Assembly (NCBI RefSeq): GCF_053078305.1
Contig: NZ_CP166879.1
DNA length: 64,000 nt
Reading direction: 5' to 3' (one strand)
Shown: piece by piece, positions 1,922 through 64,000 of the stretch
Layout of the letters: each line of letters begins with the position of its first letter
How positions within the stretch are numbered: the first letter of the stretch is position 1
Translations under genes and position numbers: made by a program
Notes under the pieces: model-generated
The model's input: only the letters and a program-made list of their open reading frames with translations
Told to the model about the DNA's origin: nothing
Databases searched by the model: none

Positions 1922-4900
1922 TTAATCAAACAGTGATTCAATGTCGTTAATCAGCTCGCTGGCGGTGATGTCGTCGAGCACGGAGAAAGTGGGTGAGGAT
2001 TGTTTACCATAGCGATCATAAGGGGCGGTGATTTTTACGCTTTCGACAGGCAGCAGGTCGCTATACCCCGTTTCGCCATAAATTAATGAAAAAGGTTCTG
2101 TTTCAAGTTCGAGAGCACCATAAGGGGTAGATTTGCGCATCGCATAGACGCTGCCGCTTTCTTCCAGACGTTGCCAGCCTCTGCGTTCCAGCCCGACAAT
2201 GCGTCCGGCCTGGCAAAGCCGTCCTTGCCAGCGTGTCAGTTCGTGAGTATTACGTTCATTGTCAGCAAGGTGATAGCTACCTCGCTCGAGCTGTTGGAAA
2301 GGGGGAAGCAGTTCGTAATCAACGTAAATTTGCCTGAATGCAGCGGCGGATTCAGGGGGGATTTCCAGCACATGCGGTATACCGATGTTTCCTGCTGGCA
2401 GCGTGAATAACTCATCCTGCGCATCGCTGTAAGTGCTGTCTTCTGCCACGCGAAAACAGGTGATAAGGGCGTTTTCATCGTTATAAACCCCCCATAACAG
2501 CCGTCGGGTTAAGTGACGTACCAGCGGATGCTCCACCAGAAACAGGCGGAACTGCTCTGCCGTCCATCGTCTGCGCTGGCACATAGCCTGTTCCAGACGG
2601 GTAATTTGCTGGCTGGCGATAGCACGAACATCTTTTTTCAACTGTTTGAAGAGATTAACCGCGTCAGTTGCCTGATTTTTTTCATCGCTCTGGTTTGGTT
2701 TGGGCAAATCTTTCAGGACTTTGCCGTTTGCGTCGCGCACTACAGGTTTTAAAGTTTCGTCAAAACCAACGGTAAATTGACGTGGGCCGAAATCCAGTGT
2801 CAGCGAGCCACTGCTATCAAGCCCTAAATCCGGTGCCAGGCGATCTTCCAGTTCGGCCATAGTCAGCCCACGGTTTTCAGCGACCATATTGATTCTGTCG
2901 CTGGCATGTTCCTGTAATGCAACGAATTTAATCTTTTGCGCAATGCCATTAAGCAACATAAGCGCAATGTCGCTACCGATACTGGCTAACACATCCAGCC
3001 CGTACACCGCCCGTTTATGCTGGGATTCCCCAGGCCAGGCGCGGATAAGCGGGGTTAATTTACGCGCGGTGTCGTCATTGCCTAAAATCCCAAGCGAAGT
3101 AAATGCCCAGTTTTCTTTTGCGGGTGCGCCAGCTTCTGTCCAGGCGGTATACAGATCCCAGCCAAATTCAGCCAGTGATTTGCGGGTGAAGATTTCTCTA
3201 ATGATATCCAGCCCAGCGTAGGCGGTAATGTCGCGAGGAAAGCTCAGCATAGTGCCGAGGTGGCGCATAGCGTCATCTGACAGAGGCAGGTTGTTACTTT
3301 TAAGCCGAGGTCTGCGCCACAAGGTGAACTGATAAAAGCCGGACAGTGGGGCGATTTTAGCGGGATATTCTTCCAGTGGGTCGCTATCGAACAATGTTGC
3401 CAGCGCAGCTAAAACATCAGGTTGATTATATCCTTGCGCGATTTCCTCAATCGTTTCTCGCTGGTTTAAATTCACCAGCAGACGAAGCGCCTGGTGGGCA
3501 CAATCACGATCTTTTCCTTTTTTGCCCAGGGCCACAGGAAGTAGCCCGGCGGCGGCATGGCGTGGATAATCAGTTAGCCAGTTTCGCGCATCTTCATAAG
3601 ACATTTTTTTCTGTAATTGTTGCGCCATCGGTAAGGCCAGTTCACTGACACCGAGGAAAAAGGGGAAGAAGCACAGACGTCGTGGATCACGTTGCAGGCA
3701 GGCCATAAATGCAGGTATGGCGGCGCTACCAAAAATTGCCAGAATATTTCCCTCACCAGAGTAGTTATCTTCTTTGACTATCTGGTTAAGAAAAGAAATG
3801 GCCTGTTGACCAGGCAGGTAACAGAGGGCAATGAGATTCCAGCTTTTGTATGCATTGTTATGATATTGCACAAATTCAGCATTGAGTGCTGGAAAATCGA
3901 AGCGTAGCAGGGCATCAACGGCGCTTTGTGGCGCCGGAATTTTTTCGTATATTTTTTCTCCGCTTTCCCGCCATTTTTCAAAACCAAGATGCCACAGTAT
4001 TTGTTGCTCCGGTGTAAGCGGTATTAAGTGTTTCTCCCAGCTTGCTTTTTTGATCGGCGGCAGGTCGGTAAACAATGTTTGTTTTGTCGCCTGCTGTTGG
4101 GCTATTTGCTGGAAGTGGGTGACAAGGTAAGTACGGGTCAGTTTTTTGGTAATCTCTGGAGTGACATCAGAAACAGAAGGAACTGGAAGCACTGGAAGAT
4201 CAAACACAGGCGTATTTTTCTTTTTCTCTTTGGTCATCCAGGGCGGCGAAACAAGCAGCTCCGGCAACATATCCACAGTGGCATATTCACATTCTTCAGC
4301 TACTGGCTGCGGACGACATTCAGATAAGATGCCAGCGGCTTTGGCGTTAACCCAGGGAATAACGTCAGTGACTAACTCTGGCGTAGCGGTAATCAGTTTG
4401 ACAAGCGCTTTACGCCACTCTTTATCTTCATGTATTGCCAGCAAAGTAGCATAAGCCGCAATAGCCGCAGCGGGATGCTTTTGACTGGCCTTGCTTAAGT
4501 ATTCCAGGTGCTTTTTCTTACCAATTACACCGAGGATCAGAATTTGAATCGCATCCGGGTGATTCGTTTTCCATAGCCATTTGACAAGATTTTCAGTCTC
4601 GCTGATGCGTTCGAAGAGATAAGTGGGATTGTCAGAATGGTCTTCCGTAAACTCAAGAAGTATCCGGCTTACACCGCGCACCCCATTATTTGCCAACAAC
4701 ATTGCCAGATAAGCGCGAAAATTACGAAAATCACGATACAACGGTGGGAAGTCGTATTTTTCCACTGTACTCAGAGCAGTATCATCGGTTATCACCAGTC
4801 TTAACCAGGTCATCGCCGGGACGTTTTGATCTGCATAGCGTAGAGCTATAGCATGGGCGATATCCGGGCGTTCAGGGAGCAGTAACGCCGCAAAAGGTTG

Positions 4901-10605: not shown

Positions 10606-11280
10606 ATGAAAGGATTATTATCTTTACTCATTTTTTCTATGGTCCTTCCTGCACATGCCGGAATTGTTATCTACGGGACGCGCATTATTTACCCGGCAGA
10701 AAATAAAGAAGTTATGGTGCAGTTGATGAACCAGGGAAACCGTTCTTCGCTGCTGCAGGCGTGGATTGATGATGGCGATACGTCATTACCACCAGAAAAA
10801 ATTCAGGTTCCTTTCATGTTAACGCCACCAGTGGCAAAAATAGGGGCAAATTCCGGGCAGCAAGTAAAAATCAAAATTATGCCGAATAAACTGCCCACTA
10901 ATAAAGAAAGCATTTTTTATCTGAATGTTCTGGATATTCCACCAAATAGTCCAGAACAAGAAGGTAAGAATGCACTGAAGTTTGCGATGCAAAACAGAAT
11001 CAAATTGTTTTACCGGCCGGCGGGTATTGCTCCGGTAAATAAAGCGACCTTTAAAAAGTTACTGGTAAATCGCAGTGGCAATGGATTGGTGATAAAAAAT
11101 GACTCAGCTAATTGGGTGACGATTTCGGATGTCAAAGCTAATAATGTCAAAGTCAATTATGAAACTATTATGATTGCCCCCTTAGAAAGTCAGAGTGTTA
11201 ATGTCAAAAGTAATAATGCAAATAACTGGCATCTGACCATTATCGATGACCATGGCAACTATATTAGTGACAAAATTTAA
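10606..11280 (+). CDS. yehC: Fimbrial periplasmic chaperone (PapD-like)
   Basis: 224 aa with signal peptide; the yehD–yehC–yehB–yehA arrangement is typical of a chaperone-usher operon. Confidence 0.85.
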   Translation: MKGLLSLLIFSMVLPAHAGIVIYGTRIIYPAENKEVMVQLMNQGNRSSLLQAWIDDGDTSLPPEKIQVPFMLTPPVAKIGANSGQQVKIKIMPNKLPTNKESIFYLNVLDIPPNSPEQEGKNALKFAMQNRIKLFYRPAGIAPVNKATFKKLLVNRSGNGLVIKNDSANWVTISDVKANNVKVNYETIMIAPLESQSVNVKSNNANNWHLTIIDDHGNYISDKI

Positions 11281-16770: not shown

Positions 16771-16903
16771 AACCAAACGACTCGGGGTGCCCTTCTGCGT
16801 GAAGGCTGAGAAATACCCGTATCACCTGATCTGGATAATGCCAGCGTAGGGAAGTCACGGACCACCAGGTCATTGCTTCTTCACGCTATGGCAGGAGCAA
16901 ACT
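16771..16903 (+). ncRNA. TPP (thi-box) riboswitch in the thiM leader
   Basis: The leader aaccaaacgactcggggtgcccttctgcgtgaaggctgagaaatacccgtatcacctgatctggataatgccagcgtagggaa contains the conserved thi-box elements (ctgaga, acctgatctggataatgccagcg) immediately upstream of the thiM ATG. Confidence 0.85.
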
Positions 16904-33109: not shown

Positions 33110-33196
33110 AAAAAATAAGCCCGTGTAAGGGAGATTACACAGGCTAAGGAGGTGGTTCCTGGTACAGCTAGCATTTTATGGGTTATGTTTTTCAGC
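33110..33196 (-). ncRNA. cyaR: CyaR (RyeE) Hfq-dependent small RNA
   Basis: The minus strand reads gctgaaaaacataacccataaaatgctagctgtaccaggaaccacctccttagcctgtgtaatctcccttacacgggcttatttttt, which matches the CyaR sequence as I remember it, including its terminator hairpin and U-tail. Confidence 0.85.
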
Positions 33197-33280
33197 GAAA
33201 CGGATGATAACCTTAATAAATGCAGCTGTATGTGATCGGTTTCTAAGAATTTTCCATCCGGGAAAAATAATCGAAATTAA

Positions 33281-47254: not shown

Positions 47255-47400
47255 GATTTCAGCGGGATGCTGAAACGGGAAAGCCCCTCCCGAGGAAGGG
47301 GTCTTAAATAAGGAAAGGGTCATGATGAAGATACTCATCATCGTGGTGCTCTTAGTGATTAGCTACCCAGCATACTAAGACTACCAGGGCGGGGGAAACC
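47255..47400 (-). ncRNA. Sib-family antisense RNA, copy 1 (ends approximate)
   Basis: Placed by analogy: Sib RNAs are transcribed opposite to, and fully overlap, the ibs ORF. Ends cannot be fixed from sequence alone. Confidence 0.4.
47322..47378 (+). CDS. Ibs-family type I toxin, copy 1 (18 aa: MMKILIIVVLLVISYPAY)
   Basis: Mini-ORF preceded by aaggaaagggtc; the peptide has the characteristic Ibs hydrophobic sequence. Confidence 0.8.
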   Translation: MMKILIIVVLLVISYPAY

Positions 47401-47582
47401 CCGCTCTACCCTCACTCCTGAAAGTATGCCTTCACGTTCAGAATGTCAATCCGCAGGCTTTGCAGTCTGCGATCCTGCCAGCAAATATTCTTTGCGAGAC
47501 GTTACGCAATAATAACACAGGAAACTATTTTATCTACGCGTTAGCGATAGACTGAATTCAGGGCGAAAGGAGGTAAGCCGAC

Positions 47583-47728
47583 GATTTCAGCGGGACGCTG
47601 AAACGGGAAAGCCCCTCCCGAGGAAGGGGCCTTAAATAAGGAAAGGGTCATGATGAAGTGGATCATCATCGTGGTGCGCTTAGTCATAAGCTTCCCGGCT
47701 TACTAAGACTACCAGGGCGGGGGAAACC
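47583..47728 (-). ncRNA. Sib-family antisense RNA, copy 2 (ends approximate)
   Basis: As copy 1. Confidence 0.4.
47650..47706 (+). CDS. Ibs-family type I toxin, copy 2 (18 aa: MMKWIIIVVRLVISFPAY)
   Basis: Same position within repeat unit 2. Confidence 0.8.
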   Translation: MMKWIIIVVRLVISFPAY

Positions 47729-47919
47729 CCGCTCTACCCTCACTCCTGAAAGTATGCCTTCACGATAAGATTGTCAATCTGCAGGCTTTGCAGTCTGCGA
47801 TCCTGCCAGCAAATATTCTTTGCGAGTCGTTACGCAATAATCATAGAGGGAACTATTTTGTTCACGCGTTAGCGATAGACTGCATTCAGGGCGAAAGGAG
47901 GTAAGCCGACGATTTCAGC

Positions 47920-48070
47920 GGGACGCTGAAACGGGAAACACTCTCCCGGAGAAGAGGGCTTTTAATAAGGAAAGGGTTATGATGAAGCACGTCATCATAC
48001 TGGTGATACTCTTGGTGATTAGCTTCCAGGCTTACTAAGAACACCAGGGGGAGGGGGAAACCTCTCCCTA
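47920..48070 (-). ncRNA. Sib-family antisense RNA, copy 3 (ends approximate)
   Basis: As copy 1. Confidence 0.4.
47989..48048 (+). CDS. Ibs-family type I toxin, copy 3 (19 aa: MMKHVIILVILLVISFQAY)
   Basis: Same position within repeat unit 3. Confidence 0.8.
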
Positions 48071-48258
48071 ACCCTCACTCCTGAAATTATGTCACTCCGC
48101 CCTTAGTGTCAATCGACGGCTCTCCGTTCTTGCGAGGCGAATAGCAAAATTTTCTGCGCCGCCGGGCCTAATTCTGAAAGTTTCTTCGTTTGCTCTTATT
48201 TCATTATTGCAATCGGTATGATACCGGACCTCAATAATTCTCTAAGAAAGGATTTCTT

Positions 48259-61335: not shown

Positions 61336-62337
61336 TCACACCTCGTACTCCATCTCGCCATCCTTACGCAGCGGTATAATCTGCACCTTCTGCACGCGAT
61401 GGCTTTCTACCTGCAACGTTTTAAGCAAATAATCCCCCACCTGAACTTCTTCGCCAGGTTTTGGAATACGCTGCAAATATTCCATCAACAGCCCGGCAAT
61501 GGTGTGATATTCACGTTTTTCATCCAGCGGCAGCGGCACATATTGCACCAGATCCTCCAGCGGCATATGACCATTCGCCGTCCAGGAACCGTCCGCATTC
61601 TTCTGAATATCATGGCGGGCGTCGATCTCTTCCACTTCGTTCGGTAAGTTACCGGCAATGGTTTCAGTGACGTCACTTAATGTCACAATCCCTTCCACCG
61701 AGCCAAACTCATCCACCACAAAAGCAAAGTGCGTGCGGGCATTACGGAACTGCTCCAGGGCAGGTAACAACGGCAAGGTTTCCGGGAACACCAGCGGCTG
61801 GCGAATCAACACCCGCAGGTTGAGCGGTTCGCCACGCAGAGACTGTTGTAGCAGGTCGATAACGTGAACAACACCGAGCAAATCTTCTGCGTCATCGCCA
61901 TCAGTAACCACCAGCCGCGTATGCTGATTTCGCTCCAGTAACTGGCGGATCTCGTCTTCCGGCGCGTTGAGATCGATATGCTCAATATCGTGGCGCGACG
62001 TCATAATGCTGCTGACGGTACGCTGGTTAAGATTAAGTACCCGCTCAATCATCCGCCGTTCCTGCGGATTAAAGATCTGCTGGTTACCATGATCCACCAG
62101 CATGGACGCGGTTTCGGCGTCCAGTTCCGCATCTTCTTTTTGCCCGCTAAGCAGGCGCATTACCGCTTCGGTAGTCCGCTGGCGCAGCGTCTGGTTAGCG
62201 GAAAGAAAACGTCGCCGGTTAAAGATAGCCAACTGATTGAGCGCCTCGATCATCACCGAGAAACCAATAGCAGCGTACAGGTAGCCTTTCGGAATGACGA
62301 ATATAGCGCGGCGATTTTTTTGATACCGATTTGCATT
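61336..62337 (-). pseudogene. yegH: yegH-like CBS/CorC-domain membrane protein, 5'-truncated: C-terminal ~330 codons present, N-terminal membrane domain missing
   Basis: The frame continues upstream of the GTG at 62256 (...FVIPKGYLYAAIGFSVMIEALNQ...) but hits a TGA at 62338-62340 and then diverges into AT-rich DNA. As I recall, full-length YegH has an N-terminal TerC-like membrane domain of about 200 aa that is absent here. Confidence 0.6.
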
Positions 62338-62429
62338 TCATTTGATACCGCTGAAAAACGCCGATACGCAACTTATTTGATACTAAATCGGCGCTTTTCT
62401 TTTGAGTTTTAGAATGAGTTTTTAAGCGC

Positions 62430-63167
62430 TCATTCACTCTCTTTCAAACCAGTTTTAACTGTTTGTGGTTTTGGGTAAGGCTGGACTTTGAATAGCTTTG
62501 TGTTGAGGCGTTTTCTGGCCCTCTTGTTCAGAAACCGGATGTAACGAAACTGTCGGAACTTATGCACACTGGCTCTGTCGATATTAGCCCTCAGATGTTC
62601 ACCTCGTTGTCCGCCTCGTTTAATGGCATTCCTGCAAATCTCGTGATACCACTCGCCATCAAGTTCATAGAATGTTGATTCATGGCTGCCTACATAATCA
62701 AAATTGCTTGCCTGATACACGACACCAAGACAGCCACAACGCTCATCTGCAAACGACTGAACCCACTGTACCTGCGGATAAAGATGCCTGATTAGCTTGA
62801 GCGCGTAACTGATTGCCCTTGATTCGGAGTTTCTCGGCATACAGTCATGCATCCATAGCCGGTTAAGCTCCATATATTCTCGGTTCTGCGTACCCGTTAC
62901 GACGCGTGCACCACTGTTTGGGTTAAGGGCGTAACCCCATTGCATTACGCCAACAAGTTCCCGTTCTGAAAATATACCCAGATGAAGGTAGGAATTATTT
63001 ACGAAACGGTGGCTGTAATGTTTATTGACGATAACCAGTCTGGCCAGCCAGCAACTTATTGTCTCAACCCGCAACTCACGGGAGCCATAACCAACGATAT
63101 TGTCGTTATAGCGAATAAGTTCAGGCGTGCTGATGATTCGGGATGTGACTTGCTTTCTGTTCCCCAC
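62430..63167 (-). CDS. Mom-like DNA modification protein (putative adenine-modifying acyltransferase)
   Basis: 245-aa ORF directly downstream of, and overlapping, the com-like gene, as in phage Mu com–mom. Assigned by context; I could not verify Mom sequence similarity. Confidence 0.5.
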
Positions 63168-63321
63168 GACAGGATTTCCTTGTGTATGTGGGGTGCTCTG
63201 TGGCGCTCGGAGATGTGATTTGATTGAGGGTTTTACAGCGCGGACATTTTACTTCCAGATAACTGAAACTGGCCCGTGCCAGTAGCTTATTGCAGTGTCG
63301 GCACCGTATGTTTCGATACAT
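63121..63321 (-). CDS. Com-like zinc-finger translational activator
   Basis: [30 protein letters not shown] closely parallels the Mu Com zinc finger as I recall it (IRCKNCNKLLFKADSFDHIEIRCPRCK). Start taken at the internal Met of an 81-aa track ORF. Confidence 0.7.
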
Positions 63322-63361
63322 GGCCGCATAACCTCCTGCTTTGTTGTTGATGTCTTTCTCA

Positions 63362-63510
63362 TGCAATCGATCGACAAAAACGATCGATTCGATTTGTTTA
63401 ATTGATACAACAAATAGATTGAAAAGTCATCAATAATGATTCAGGGAGGTGATTATTTACTTAAAGAAAACGAAGAGTTAGGTGGTGAAAATGATCATAA
63501 AATGATCATT
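63362..63510. promoter_or_regulatory. GATC-rich region upstream of com/mom (candidate Dam-methylation-dependent promoter control)
   Basis: Four GATC sites within ~140 bp (63369, 63382, 63493, 63504), arranged as palindromes tcgatcga / cgatcg and an inverted pair tgatca-taaaa-tgatca. Confidence 0.5.
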
Positions 63511-63730
63511 TTATTGACTTTTTATACAGTGAAGGTAGGATCGCGCGTATATGTAGTATGTTTCAAATCAATGGGATACTACATACATAAAGGGCGACCC
63601 AGATAGCGCGAACTATTCTGGGCCGATTTAGACAATTTTGCATCAATGCTTTACTTCGAGCTCGTGGCGTATCCTATGATATTCCCCGGTCTCCTGTAAA
63701 GCAGAGATGCATAAAAAGGAGATCTTTATC

Positions 63731-63901
63731 ATGGATAAAGAGCCTGTTTGCCCTGCCTGTAAGACTCCCTTACAGCTCATCTATCGCCGTTCTCGATCTC
63801 AAAATGGCAAGACATACAAACCAAAAAATGCTTCCTGTTTCAGGATGCTGATATGTCCTGCCTGTTCTCCCCGGAGGGAAAATACACAAAACGTGCATTA
63901 A
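63731..63901 (+). CDS. Small zinc-ribbon protein (two CPAC motifs)
   Basis: Strong RBS aaggag 10 nt upstream of the ATG at 63731; translation MDKEPVCPACKTPLQLIYRRSRSQNGKTYKPKNASCFRMLICPACSPRREN. Confidence 0.4.
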   Translation: MDKEPVCPACKTPLQLIYRRSRSQNGKTYKPKNASCFRMLICPACSPRRENTQNVH

Positions 63902-64000
63902 CAAATTCACCCGGCAGGGAAACCTGCCGGTCGGTATTGTTACATCATAGTACCGTCAGTTCCGGGCTGAACCGGCTCTGGTTGCTCTACGGGTTGAGGC

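Follow-up and report, generated by a model that had tools for sequence, protein, structure and literature searches.

The last part of the window, by which we mean the whole 64,000-nt stretch of DNA analysed (contig NZ_CP166879.1 of RefSeq assembly GCF_053078305.1), contains a truncated yegH gene and, directly adjoining it, 1.7 kb of an inserted element with two overlapping genes, com and mom. The features at the locus are listed here by window position:

61336..62301, minus strand: 3' part of yegH (TerC-family membrane protein), truncated by the insertion; last 321 codons and stop of a 527-codon gene
62298..62301, no strand: predicted copy, CGAA, of the target-site duplication, inferred from other Sp18-type insertions
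62302..64000, minus strand: very probable right end of an Sp18-type Mu-like prophage
62311..62383, plus strand: three direct copies (62311-62326, 62333-62348 and 62368-62383) of a 16-nt terminal repeat ending TTTGATAC, from a repeat search
62353..62399, minus strand: inverted repeat of 13 nt with a 21-nt loop and 92% complementarity, then a minus-strand T run, downstream of mom, from a repeat search
62430..63167, minus strand: mom, an open reading frame of 245 aa with a GTG start
63121..63321, minus strand: com, 66 aa from its ATG, predicted by homology to Mu Com to encode a zinc-ribbon translational activator of mom
63162..63193, minus strand: predicted RNA hairpin CCCCAC...GUGGGG, from folding prediction and conservation
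63365..63389, no strand: proximal inverted repeat AATCGATCG-N7-CGATCGATT with GATC at 63369 and 63382, at -64/-51 from the com ATG
63436..63901, plus strand: divergent pseudogene of unknown function, broken into open reading frames 63436-63606 and 63707-63901
63488..63512, no strand: distal inverted repeat AAAATGATC-N7-GATCATTTT with GATC at 63493 and 63504, inside the pseudogene, read from the sequence
63940..64000, minus strand: 3' end of a DUF826-family prophage gene that runs off the window; position carried over, with a fixed offset, from the gene at 4639-4884 (minus) in the RefSeq annotation of L001

A Mu-like prophage in yegH

Alignment to the intact yegH of strain ET350 (L004, 1584 nt) is continuous up to position 62301 and divergent thereafter. 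The junction with yegH is exact, and the first base of the element is 62302. A sequence-only reading of the window had placed the boundary of the element within a core gene, and the distribution of the two parts agrees with this: 5414 of 5426 complete Escherichia coli genomes have the yegH flank, whereas the element is carried by 198 of the 5426, at many different sites. The segment is therefore accessory and not native, contrary to what would be seen for a region conserved in all E. coli. Up to five places per genome match the 1.8-kb query, which includes approximately 100 nt of the yegH flank. The yegH junction itself was not found in any complete E. coli genome among the matches listed.

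Over 1698 nt, the element matches the right end of the Sp18 prophage in E. coli O157:H7 Sakai with 97.8% nucleotide identity. Together with the exact yegH junction, this substantiates the earlier proposal of a phage-derived com/mom-like module inserted in yegH, and we are confident that an Sp18-type Mu-like transposable prophage has transposed into yegH, that 62302-64000 represents its right end and that it carries a com-mom operon. Only 1.7 kb of the element is seen here; the remaining ≈37 kb of the prophage would lie outside the window, as had also been expected from the sequence. In two relatives (L003 and L093) the whole prophage could be read as a complete 38.8-kb Mu-like element with genes for a repressor, Ner, MuA, MuB, Gam, an activator of the Mor/C family, head and tail proteins and an invertase. 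The Mor/C-family activator (28756-29181 in L003; ECs_4961 in Sakai) would be outside the window for the present copy.

Sakai Sp18 and the window element share terminus, GATC palindrome and gene order, with com and mom annotated in Sakai as ECs_4997 and ECs_4998. They differ in the site of insertion, which is sorM in Sakai and yegH here, and in the state of the divergent gene. The Sakai annotation gives an unbroken gene (ECs_4996, 465 nt, 154 aa), and L008 and L009 likewise have the full 154 aa, but the frame is disrupted by indels in the window and in the O157 strains 380-94 and Z869. The pseudogene combines an N-terminal part matching PHROG 26524 (unknown function) with a C-terminal CPAC...CPAC zinc ribbon, and a Pfam search with the 154-aa product gave no family. 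Phage Mu likewise has com-mom (Mup54/Mup55) at the right end of its transposable genome; it differs in having gin upstream of com, where the window element has the divergent gene instead. Mom and its regulators are known to be encoded by Sp18 (PMC3299994), and the com-mom genes of Sp18-type Mu-like prophages are annotated in RefSeq, so the feature is an ordinary one already known from the literature. The structure of Mom and its chemistry have likewise been worked out.

Termini and target-site duplication

The element end TATAGCGCGGCG... adjoins eight to nine different flanks across other genomes, as read directly at the junctions. A 7-bp stretch of yegH, TGACGAA (at 62295), was considered as part of the element end and rejected, as eight junction flanks differ up to TATAGCG. 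BLAST matches that start at query position 96 are chance matches of target-like sequence. Both ends were read for four independent insertions of the Sp18 type, and in each exactly 4 bp are shared across the element; removal of the element and one 4-bp copy from Sakai sorM restores the intact gene with 100% identity over 196 nt. A 5-bp duplication of the Mu type was rejected, since it fits none of these four insertions without a mismatch. For the present copy, a second CGAA should flank the left end beyond the window, and the left end is predicted to read ...CCTGGTTACA, then CGAAGCCGAAACC of yegH, with CGAA duplicated.

The Sp18 phage type combines a right terminus in ...TA-3' with a 4-bp target duplication, whereas the right terminus of Mu is ...CA-3' and its duplication 5 bp. 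The three terminal repeats are 75-81% identical to each other, are spaced by 22 and 35 bp and all lie within 82 bp of the terminus. The motif TTTGATACC is also found 17 nt from the left-end terminus in relatives. The repeats are presumably transposase-binding sites equivalent to R1-R3 of Mu.

The mom gene product

The 245-aa protein aligns to Mu Mom without gaps at 79% identity (E 6e-141). It covers the whole Pfam model of Mom (PF25680, positions 1-202 of 202, 1.4e-76) and matches PDB entry 8bv8, "Methylcarbamoylase mom" (1.7e-124), and the Mom-like PHROG (1e-83); the corresponding NCBIfam search gave no match. Nine residues important in Mu Mom by mutagenesis, R111, S124, D149 and R151 among them (PMC13219725), are W48, H58, Y59, R111, S124, D149, R151, Y159 and W181 in Mu numbering, and all nine are identical at positions 40, 50, 51, 103, 116, 141, 143, 151 and 173 of the window protein. 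The helix-turn-helix-like insertion that is required for activity (about residues 175-209 in Mu) is ungapped and highly similar. After the GTG start the protein begins MGN(R)K, the Mu counterpart being MGKREK. Compared with the Mom of Sakai Sp18, 3 of 245 residues differ, all of them non-catalytic.

The protein is thus identified by its sequence as a homologue of Mom, as had been supposed, and would be a GNAT-fold, tRNA(Gly)-dependent adenine N6-modification enzyme. Mom chemistry is a Gly-tRNA(Gly)-dependent N6-carbamoylmethylation of adenine (PMC13219725); this is known for Mu Mom only, and the assignment made here is based on homology and the catalytic residues. By analogy, Mom would transfer glycine from Gly-tRNA(Gly) to the N6 of adenine in double-stranded DNA, and the adduct would rearrange to N6-carbamoylmethyl-adenine, which would shield the phage DNA from many restriction enzymes.

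Com, the com-mom overlap and the hairpin at the mom start

The longest open reading frame in the com frame starts at a TTG at 63366 and has 81 aa, while the ATG start gives the 66-aa product. Com is 47% identical to Mu Com (E 7e-15) and identical to Com of Sakai Sp18, and it has four cysteines, CRHC...CPRC, in a zinc ribbon near the N-terminus. It matches Pfam PF10122 (Zn_ribbon_Com) at 2.2e-12 and the PHROG "gpCom control of modification", which agrees with the resemblance to Mu Com noticed from the letters alone; with both proteins matching their Mu counterparts, the possibility that neither was related to Com or Mom is contradicted. NCBIfam gave only a sub-threshold zinc-finger match for Com, and no relative of Com was found by sequence search of the PDB.

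com lies directly upstream of mom and overlaps it by 47 nt (63121-63167), very similar to Mu, in which the overlap with the GTG start of mom is approximately 50 nt, in line with the arrangement proposed from the sequence. The context of the GTG start is also shared, as is a hairpin over the start codon. Within the predicted hairpin, the Shine-Dalgarno sequence of mom (AAGGA, 63181-63177) is enclosed and the GUG start codon (63167-63165) is base-paired. The hairpin is present in both the minimum-free-energy and the centroid fold, for the window and for the equivalent place in Mu, and a consensus fold of nine diverged com-mom lineages has six pairs, none of them broken. The outer pair is C-G in five lineages and U-A in four, i.e., one compensatory pair. 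The overall fold z-scores of the region are not significant, and since the hairpin lies within overlapping coding sequence, its conservation is partly protein-driven.

In Mu, Com relieves a hairpin that inhibits translation of mom. We take the predicted structure at 63162..63193 to be the same translation-inhibition structure that Com opens in Mu. Com would be translated first, before Mom; it would then bind the mRNA beside the mom-start hairpin and open it, and Mom would be made. Downstream of mom, the inverted repeat and T run at 62353..62399 are possibly the terminator of the com-mom operon, judging from the sequence. An Rfam search of 62250-64000 gave no family.

GATC sites upstream of com

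GATC occurs upstream of com at 63369, 63382, 63493 and 63504, and these four sites span 139 bp; a fifth follows at 63539. The four sites are all in 6-bp palindromes (CGATCG twice and TGATCA twice), and each pair is found within a perfect 25-bp inverted repeat, so that the palindromic cluster of ≈140 bp described earlier is present. The cluster was rejected as a statistically unusual one: the window has one GATC every 263 bp on average, and at four other places in the 64 kb there are six further groups of four GATC within at most 140 bp. As clustering is unexceptional in the window, the functional weight of the sites has to come from conservation and not from density.

Judged in this way, the earlier proposal of a GATC-rich control region stands for the proximal pair, which is conserved, but not for the distal pair, which lies in the pseudogene and is not. 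The proximal repeat has perfect 9-bp arms and a 7-nt spacer, with two CGATCG palindromes 13 bp apart. All Sp18-type variants retain this pair, and most diverged com-mom lineages, Mu among them, have an equivalent one with the same 13-bp spacing, in the context CGATCG-N7-CGATCGAT. The pair is homologous to GATC sites 2 and 3 of Mu, and the GATC cores are constant across lineages while the neighbouring bases vary. The distal repeat is imperfect in relatives (CGATCA) and is absent from the sister variants L013 and L028, in which the region is different. The distal pair is probably outside the control of com-mom.

Promoters controlled by OxyR and Dam, such as those of Mu mom, agn43 and the gtr switches, have clustered GATC sites whose methylation decides repressor binding. 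Phase variation of gtr is under such OxyR/Dam control (PMC2909390). The proximal palindrome resembles these promoters in having clustered GATC in a regulatory region, although it has only two sites, and by analogy we infer that it acts as a conserved, Dam-sensitive element controlling the com-mom promoter region, under Dam/OxyR control.

The layout differs from that of Mu, which has three GATC sites to the two here. The pair is approximately 28 nt closer to com, and from GATCGATT to the com ATG there are ≈43 nt compared with ≈70 nt in Mu. With only ≈43 nt before the com ATG, there is no room downstream of the GATC pair for the C-binding site and Pmom of Mu, and because of the shift the exact C-site and Pmom layout of Mu is not transferable. 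Neither a Mu-type TTAT-N6-ATAA dyad for C binding nor a sigma-70 consensus promoter was found in scans upstream of com, and the window element has no recognisable counterpart of the Mu C-binding site or of the -10/-35 of Pmom. By analogy with Mu, the com-mom operon would stay silent in the lysogen; its transcription would come late during lytic growth, driven by a weak promoter. This promoter would lie beside or over the palindrome with its two Dam sites, whose methylation state would govern access.

Alternative explanations

The palindrome might instead be the operator of a dimeric phage regulator, or a hairpin in the leader RNA, with its GATC content incidental. Perfect 9-bp inverted arms around a 7-nt spacer are indeed a typical geometry for a dimeric DNA-binding protein, and the palindrome is much nearer to com than is the OxyR region of Mu. 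In the sister lineages L038-L040, moreover, a good -10 hexamer (TATACT/TATAGT) follows the palindrome by 7-9 nt, so that the palindrome covers the -35 and the spacer, the region occupied in Mu by the C site. Against this, the context ATCAATTAAA...CGATCG...GATCGATT is homologous to the OxyR/Dam region of Mu, and it is the GATC cores that stay constant and the bases around them that vary. The palindrome is also unique in the 38.8-kb prophage and therefore not a general late-activator site. As an operator of the late activator it was rejected on two grounds: a scan of the 38.8 kb with up to five mismatches gave a single, poor second match, and no motif of this kind is common to the sequences upstream of the late operons. 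We consider an incidental GATC content rather unlikely. If the palindrome is a Dam-sensitive element, its position suggests a somewhat better but still doubtful idea, namely that the mom switch of the Sp18 lineage has been rewired, with the Dam palindrome, at -64/-51 from the com ATG, overlying the core promoter or the leader and not upstream of a C site and promoter, in a phage that also transposes with a ...TA-3' terminus and a 4-bp duplication.

The module could also be an inactive remnant, with com-mom never expressed from a defective or truncated prophage copy. The broken divergent gene next to it, the lack of a recognisable promoter upstream of com and the mere 1.7 kb of visible element would fit such a remnant. 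However, the same pseudogene state is found in full-length prophages, neither the terminal repeats nor the exact terminus is damaged in the window, and both com and mom are intact, Com being the same as in Sakai Sp18 and Mom showing only the three non-catalytic differences. Sakai Sp18 is itself reported to be intact and efficiently packaged (PMC2669165), and a dead remnant is accordingly improbable. Least credible of all would be a Mom-family enzyme with a donor or product unlike that of Mu Mom. The 21% of residues that differ from Mu Mom and a 12-residue C-terminal extension relative to it leave a little room for this, but every residue important in Mu is identical, the alignment is ungapped through the helix-turn-helix-like insertion at 175-209, and active Mom homologues mined from metagenomes have been reported (PMC13219725). 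We thus favour a Mom homologue that would have the activity of Mu Mom, in a module that is probably not defective.

Implications

For the annotation of this genome, yegH is disrupted by a transposable prophage, and ≈37 kb of Mu-like prophage should lie past the window. If the mom switch of the Sp18 lineage were indeed rewired, methylation would control it by a route other than that of Mu, possibly occlusion of the promoter by OxyR, with occlusion by another palindrome-binding protein also possible. As comparative details, the shift of the Dam palindrome, the TA terminus and the 4-bp duplication are small, though they may interest those working on Mu regulation or transposition. By analogy with Mu, the strain is probably able to make DNA containing N6-carbamoylmethyl-adenine during phage growth.

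Com and Mom Proteins

The stretch at 62302–64000 is the right end of a Mu-like prophage of the Sp18 type, inserted in yegH and continuing beyond the window. Genes lying in it include:

62430–63167, minus strand: mom, 245 aa, GTG start
63121–63321, minus strand: com, upstream of mom, 66 aa with two CxxC pairs, ATG start
63436–63901, plus strand: divergent gene beside com, 154 aa when intact (WP_115801860.1), PHROG 26524

The sequence-only reading had described the two overlapping minus-strand frames, the CxxC pairs and four upstream GATC sites arranged as palindromes; this observation was confirmed as accurate, with an overlap of 47 nt. Its interpretation as a phage-derived com-mom module is supported. 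The 245-aa protein is a homolog of Mu Mom, with 79% identity across 229 residues without gaps (E 6e-141), and matches Pfam Mom (PF25680) along the entire model (1.4e-76), PHROG 1384 ("Mom-like DNA modification protein") and the Mu Mom crystal structure (PDB 8bv8, 1.7e-124). The 66-aa protein is Com, as judged from Pfam Zn_ribbon_Com (2.2e-12), the PHROG "gpCom control of modification" and 47% identity to Mu Com.

Mu Mom moves glycine from Gly-tRNA(Gly) onto N6 of adenine in double-stranded DNA, and the adduct subsequently rearranges to 6-NcmdA (PMC13219725). Activity requires R111, S124, D149 (from earlier work cited there) and R151, and is strongly affected by H58, Y59, W48, Y159 and W181 (PMC13219725). 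All nine residues are identical in the window Mom.

Translational Control of mom

The GTG start of mom is common to the window (MGNRK...) and Mu (MGKREK...). A hairpin pairs this start codon (GUG) in both the minimum-free-energy and the centroid folds of the window and Mu RNAs, with the stem CCCCAC...GUGGGG (63193–63162) in the window and UCCCAC...GUGGGA in Mu, and with the Shine-Dalgarno sequence in the loop. When nine diverged com-mom lineages, drawn from viral contigs, were folded to a consensus, this same 6-pair stem resulted, with no broken pairs. It shows one compensatory change, at the outer pair (C-G in five lineages, U-A in four). Two caveats apply: the stem falls within overlapping coding sequence, and neither the window RNA nor the Mu RNA, taken as a whole, folds with better energy than shuffled sequences. 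In Mu, Com is known to bind the mRNA and relieve a structure that inhibits translation, and the predicted hairpin over the mom start matches that mechanism.

GATC Sites Upstream of com

Upstream of com, four GATC sites fall within 139 bp (63369, 63382, 63493 and 63504), and a fifth is at 63539. The proximal pair has the form CGATCG and the distal pair TGATCA, each inside a perfect 25-bp inverted repeat. Density by itself is unremarkable: the window has one GATC per 263 bp, and six other runs of four within 140 bp are found at four other places in the 64 kb. No GATC occurs in 62302–63368 (1067 bp: terminus, mom and com), where about four would be expected at window density.

Sequences upstream of com were compared in 73 cases, 48 of them distinct. 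Almost all lineages carry two or three GATC sites there, and two distant lineages have none.

GATC positions relative to the com ATG
Mu type: -109, -91, -78
Second com-mom type: -98, -80
Window type: -64, -51
Sister com-mom lineages (L038–L040): -66/-53, with an optional third ~31 bp further upstream

The Dam-site control region proposed from sequence held in part. The proximal pair is a conserved element homologous to the Mu Dam/OxyR region, because the local context can be aligned (ATCAATTAAAtCGATCGgtaatacaGATCGATT in Mu, ATCAATTAAAcaaatcgaatCGATCGtttttgtCGATCGATT in the window), with flanks that are otherwise unrelated. The layout is unlike that of Mu: GATCGATT lies ~43 nt from the com ATG in the window and ~70 nt in Mu, and no counterparts of the Mu C-binding dyad TTATgccccaATAA or of its -35/-10 were found in the window com-upstream region. 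The distal pair is not counted as part of the control region. It lies inside the divergent gene, its repeat is imperfect in relatives and it is missing from the sister variants L013 and L028, even though in the window the repeat (63488–63512, AAAATGATC-N7-GATCATTTT) is perfect and shares its arm and spacer geometry with the com-proximal one. The divergent gene combines the PHROG 26524 part with a C-terminal CPAC...CPAC zinc ribbon. Small indels disrupt its frame in the window and in O157 strains 380-94 and Z869, while strains 06_3235 and AR-0430 carry an intact copy; in the window and several O157 strains it is a pseudogene.

A promoter scan upstream of com found none. The sister lineages L038–L040 have a good -10 hexamer (TATACT or TATAGT) 7–9 nt past the second GATC, so that the palindrome would cover the -35 and the spacer. 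The window type has a poor hexamer at the matching position, which suggests that its com promoter needs an activator. A general late-activator site was considered for the proximal palindrome and ruled out, since the palindrome occurs only once within the prophage and so is specific to mom. Mu mom reportedly depends on Dam and OxyR, and by analogy we infer the same for the window com-mom. A motif (a/t)tcccgcaaa...ccgcc precedes the Sp18 lysis and head operons (~11046–11116 and 18834–19009 in L093, Sakai Sp18) and resembles the tcccgcacc of the Mu late promoters Plys and PI (PMC4461284); this motif is absent upstream of com in Sp18 and in Mu.

Element Ends and Target Duplication

Reading from outside inward, the left end of the Sp18 type begins TGTAACCAGG... 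and the right end TATAGCGCGG..., so the termini are 5'-TG on the left and ...TA-3' on the right, unlike the ...CA-3' of Mu. The 82 bp next to the right terminus hold three 16-nt direct repeats that end in TTTGATAC, and the motif recurs 17 nt from the left terminus in relatives; these are likely transposase-binding sites. Two stem-loops stand at or after the mom stop codon (62353–62399 and 62412–62435). A minus-strand T run comes after the distal stem-loop, whose loop holds the third repeat; this stem-loop may be an operon terminator embedded in the putative transposase-binding region.

Ends were read in Sakai Sp18 (L093, 571 and 39325), in strain 380-94 (L003, 514 and ~39442), in L006/L011 and L007/L012, and in the window (62298–62302). 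Each of the four independent insertions read at both ends has its own 4-bp sequence repeated on both sides (TAAA, CACC, CACG and GTCA in Mu orientation), whereas the Mu duplication is 5 bp. Removing Sp18 and one TAAA copy from Sakai restores an intact sorM (100% over 196 nt). By analogy with these four, CGAA at 62298–62301 is the predicted duplicated target in the window. The third base outward from the right terminus is C in eight of nine flanks, the exception being Sakai sorM (TAAA).

Prophage and Insertion Site

The boundary within yegH was placed correctly from sequence: alignment to the intact gene of strain ET350 (1584 nt) is unbroken to 62301, and the element sequence TATAGCGCGGCGATTTTTTTGATACC... 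starts at 62302. In other genomes of E. coli the same end adjoins eight flanks that are unrelated, and in Sakai it adjoins sorM. The segment is accessory, being found in 198 of 5426 complete E. coli genomes at differing sites, compared with 5414 for the yegH flank; up to five places per genome match a 1.8-kb query that includes ~100 nt of this flank.

The prophages of strain 380-94 and Sakai, read whole, are 38.8-kb and Mu-like, with com-mom at the right end and genes for a repressor, Ner, MuA, MuB, Kil, Gam, head and tail proteins, and an invertase with an invertible segment. Each has one Mor/C-family activator, ahead of the lysis genes. RefSeq annotates a "tRNA-OTHER" in the 380-94 prophage (L003 21473–21552, outside the window), between head-morphogenesis and virion-morphogenesis genes. 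Elsewhere in the window, three features matched Rfam at the gathering threshold and are ordinary E. coli chromosomal features:

16773–16869, plus strand: TPP riboswitch
33113–33198, minus strand: CyaR
47307–48112, minus strand: three tandem Sib antitoxin RNAs

The right end of Sakai Sp18 is 97.8% identical to the 1.7 kb of the window, with an identical Com and a Mom that differs at three residues. RefSeq labels near-identical copies "Com family..." and "tRNA(Gly)-dependent adenine aminoacyltransferase Mom". Published reports describe Sp18 as intact, with efficient packaging (PMC2669165) and strain-specific insertion sites (PMC7430833), and already credit it with homologues of Mom and its regulators at the corresponding position (PMC3299994). 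The yegH junction was absent among the best matches in complete E. coli genomes. This prophage type and its com-mom module, which is annotated, were already known; the window has a near-identical copy of the module, and what is new is the insertion site.
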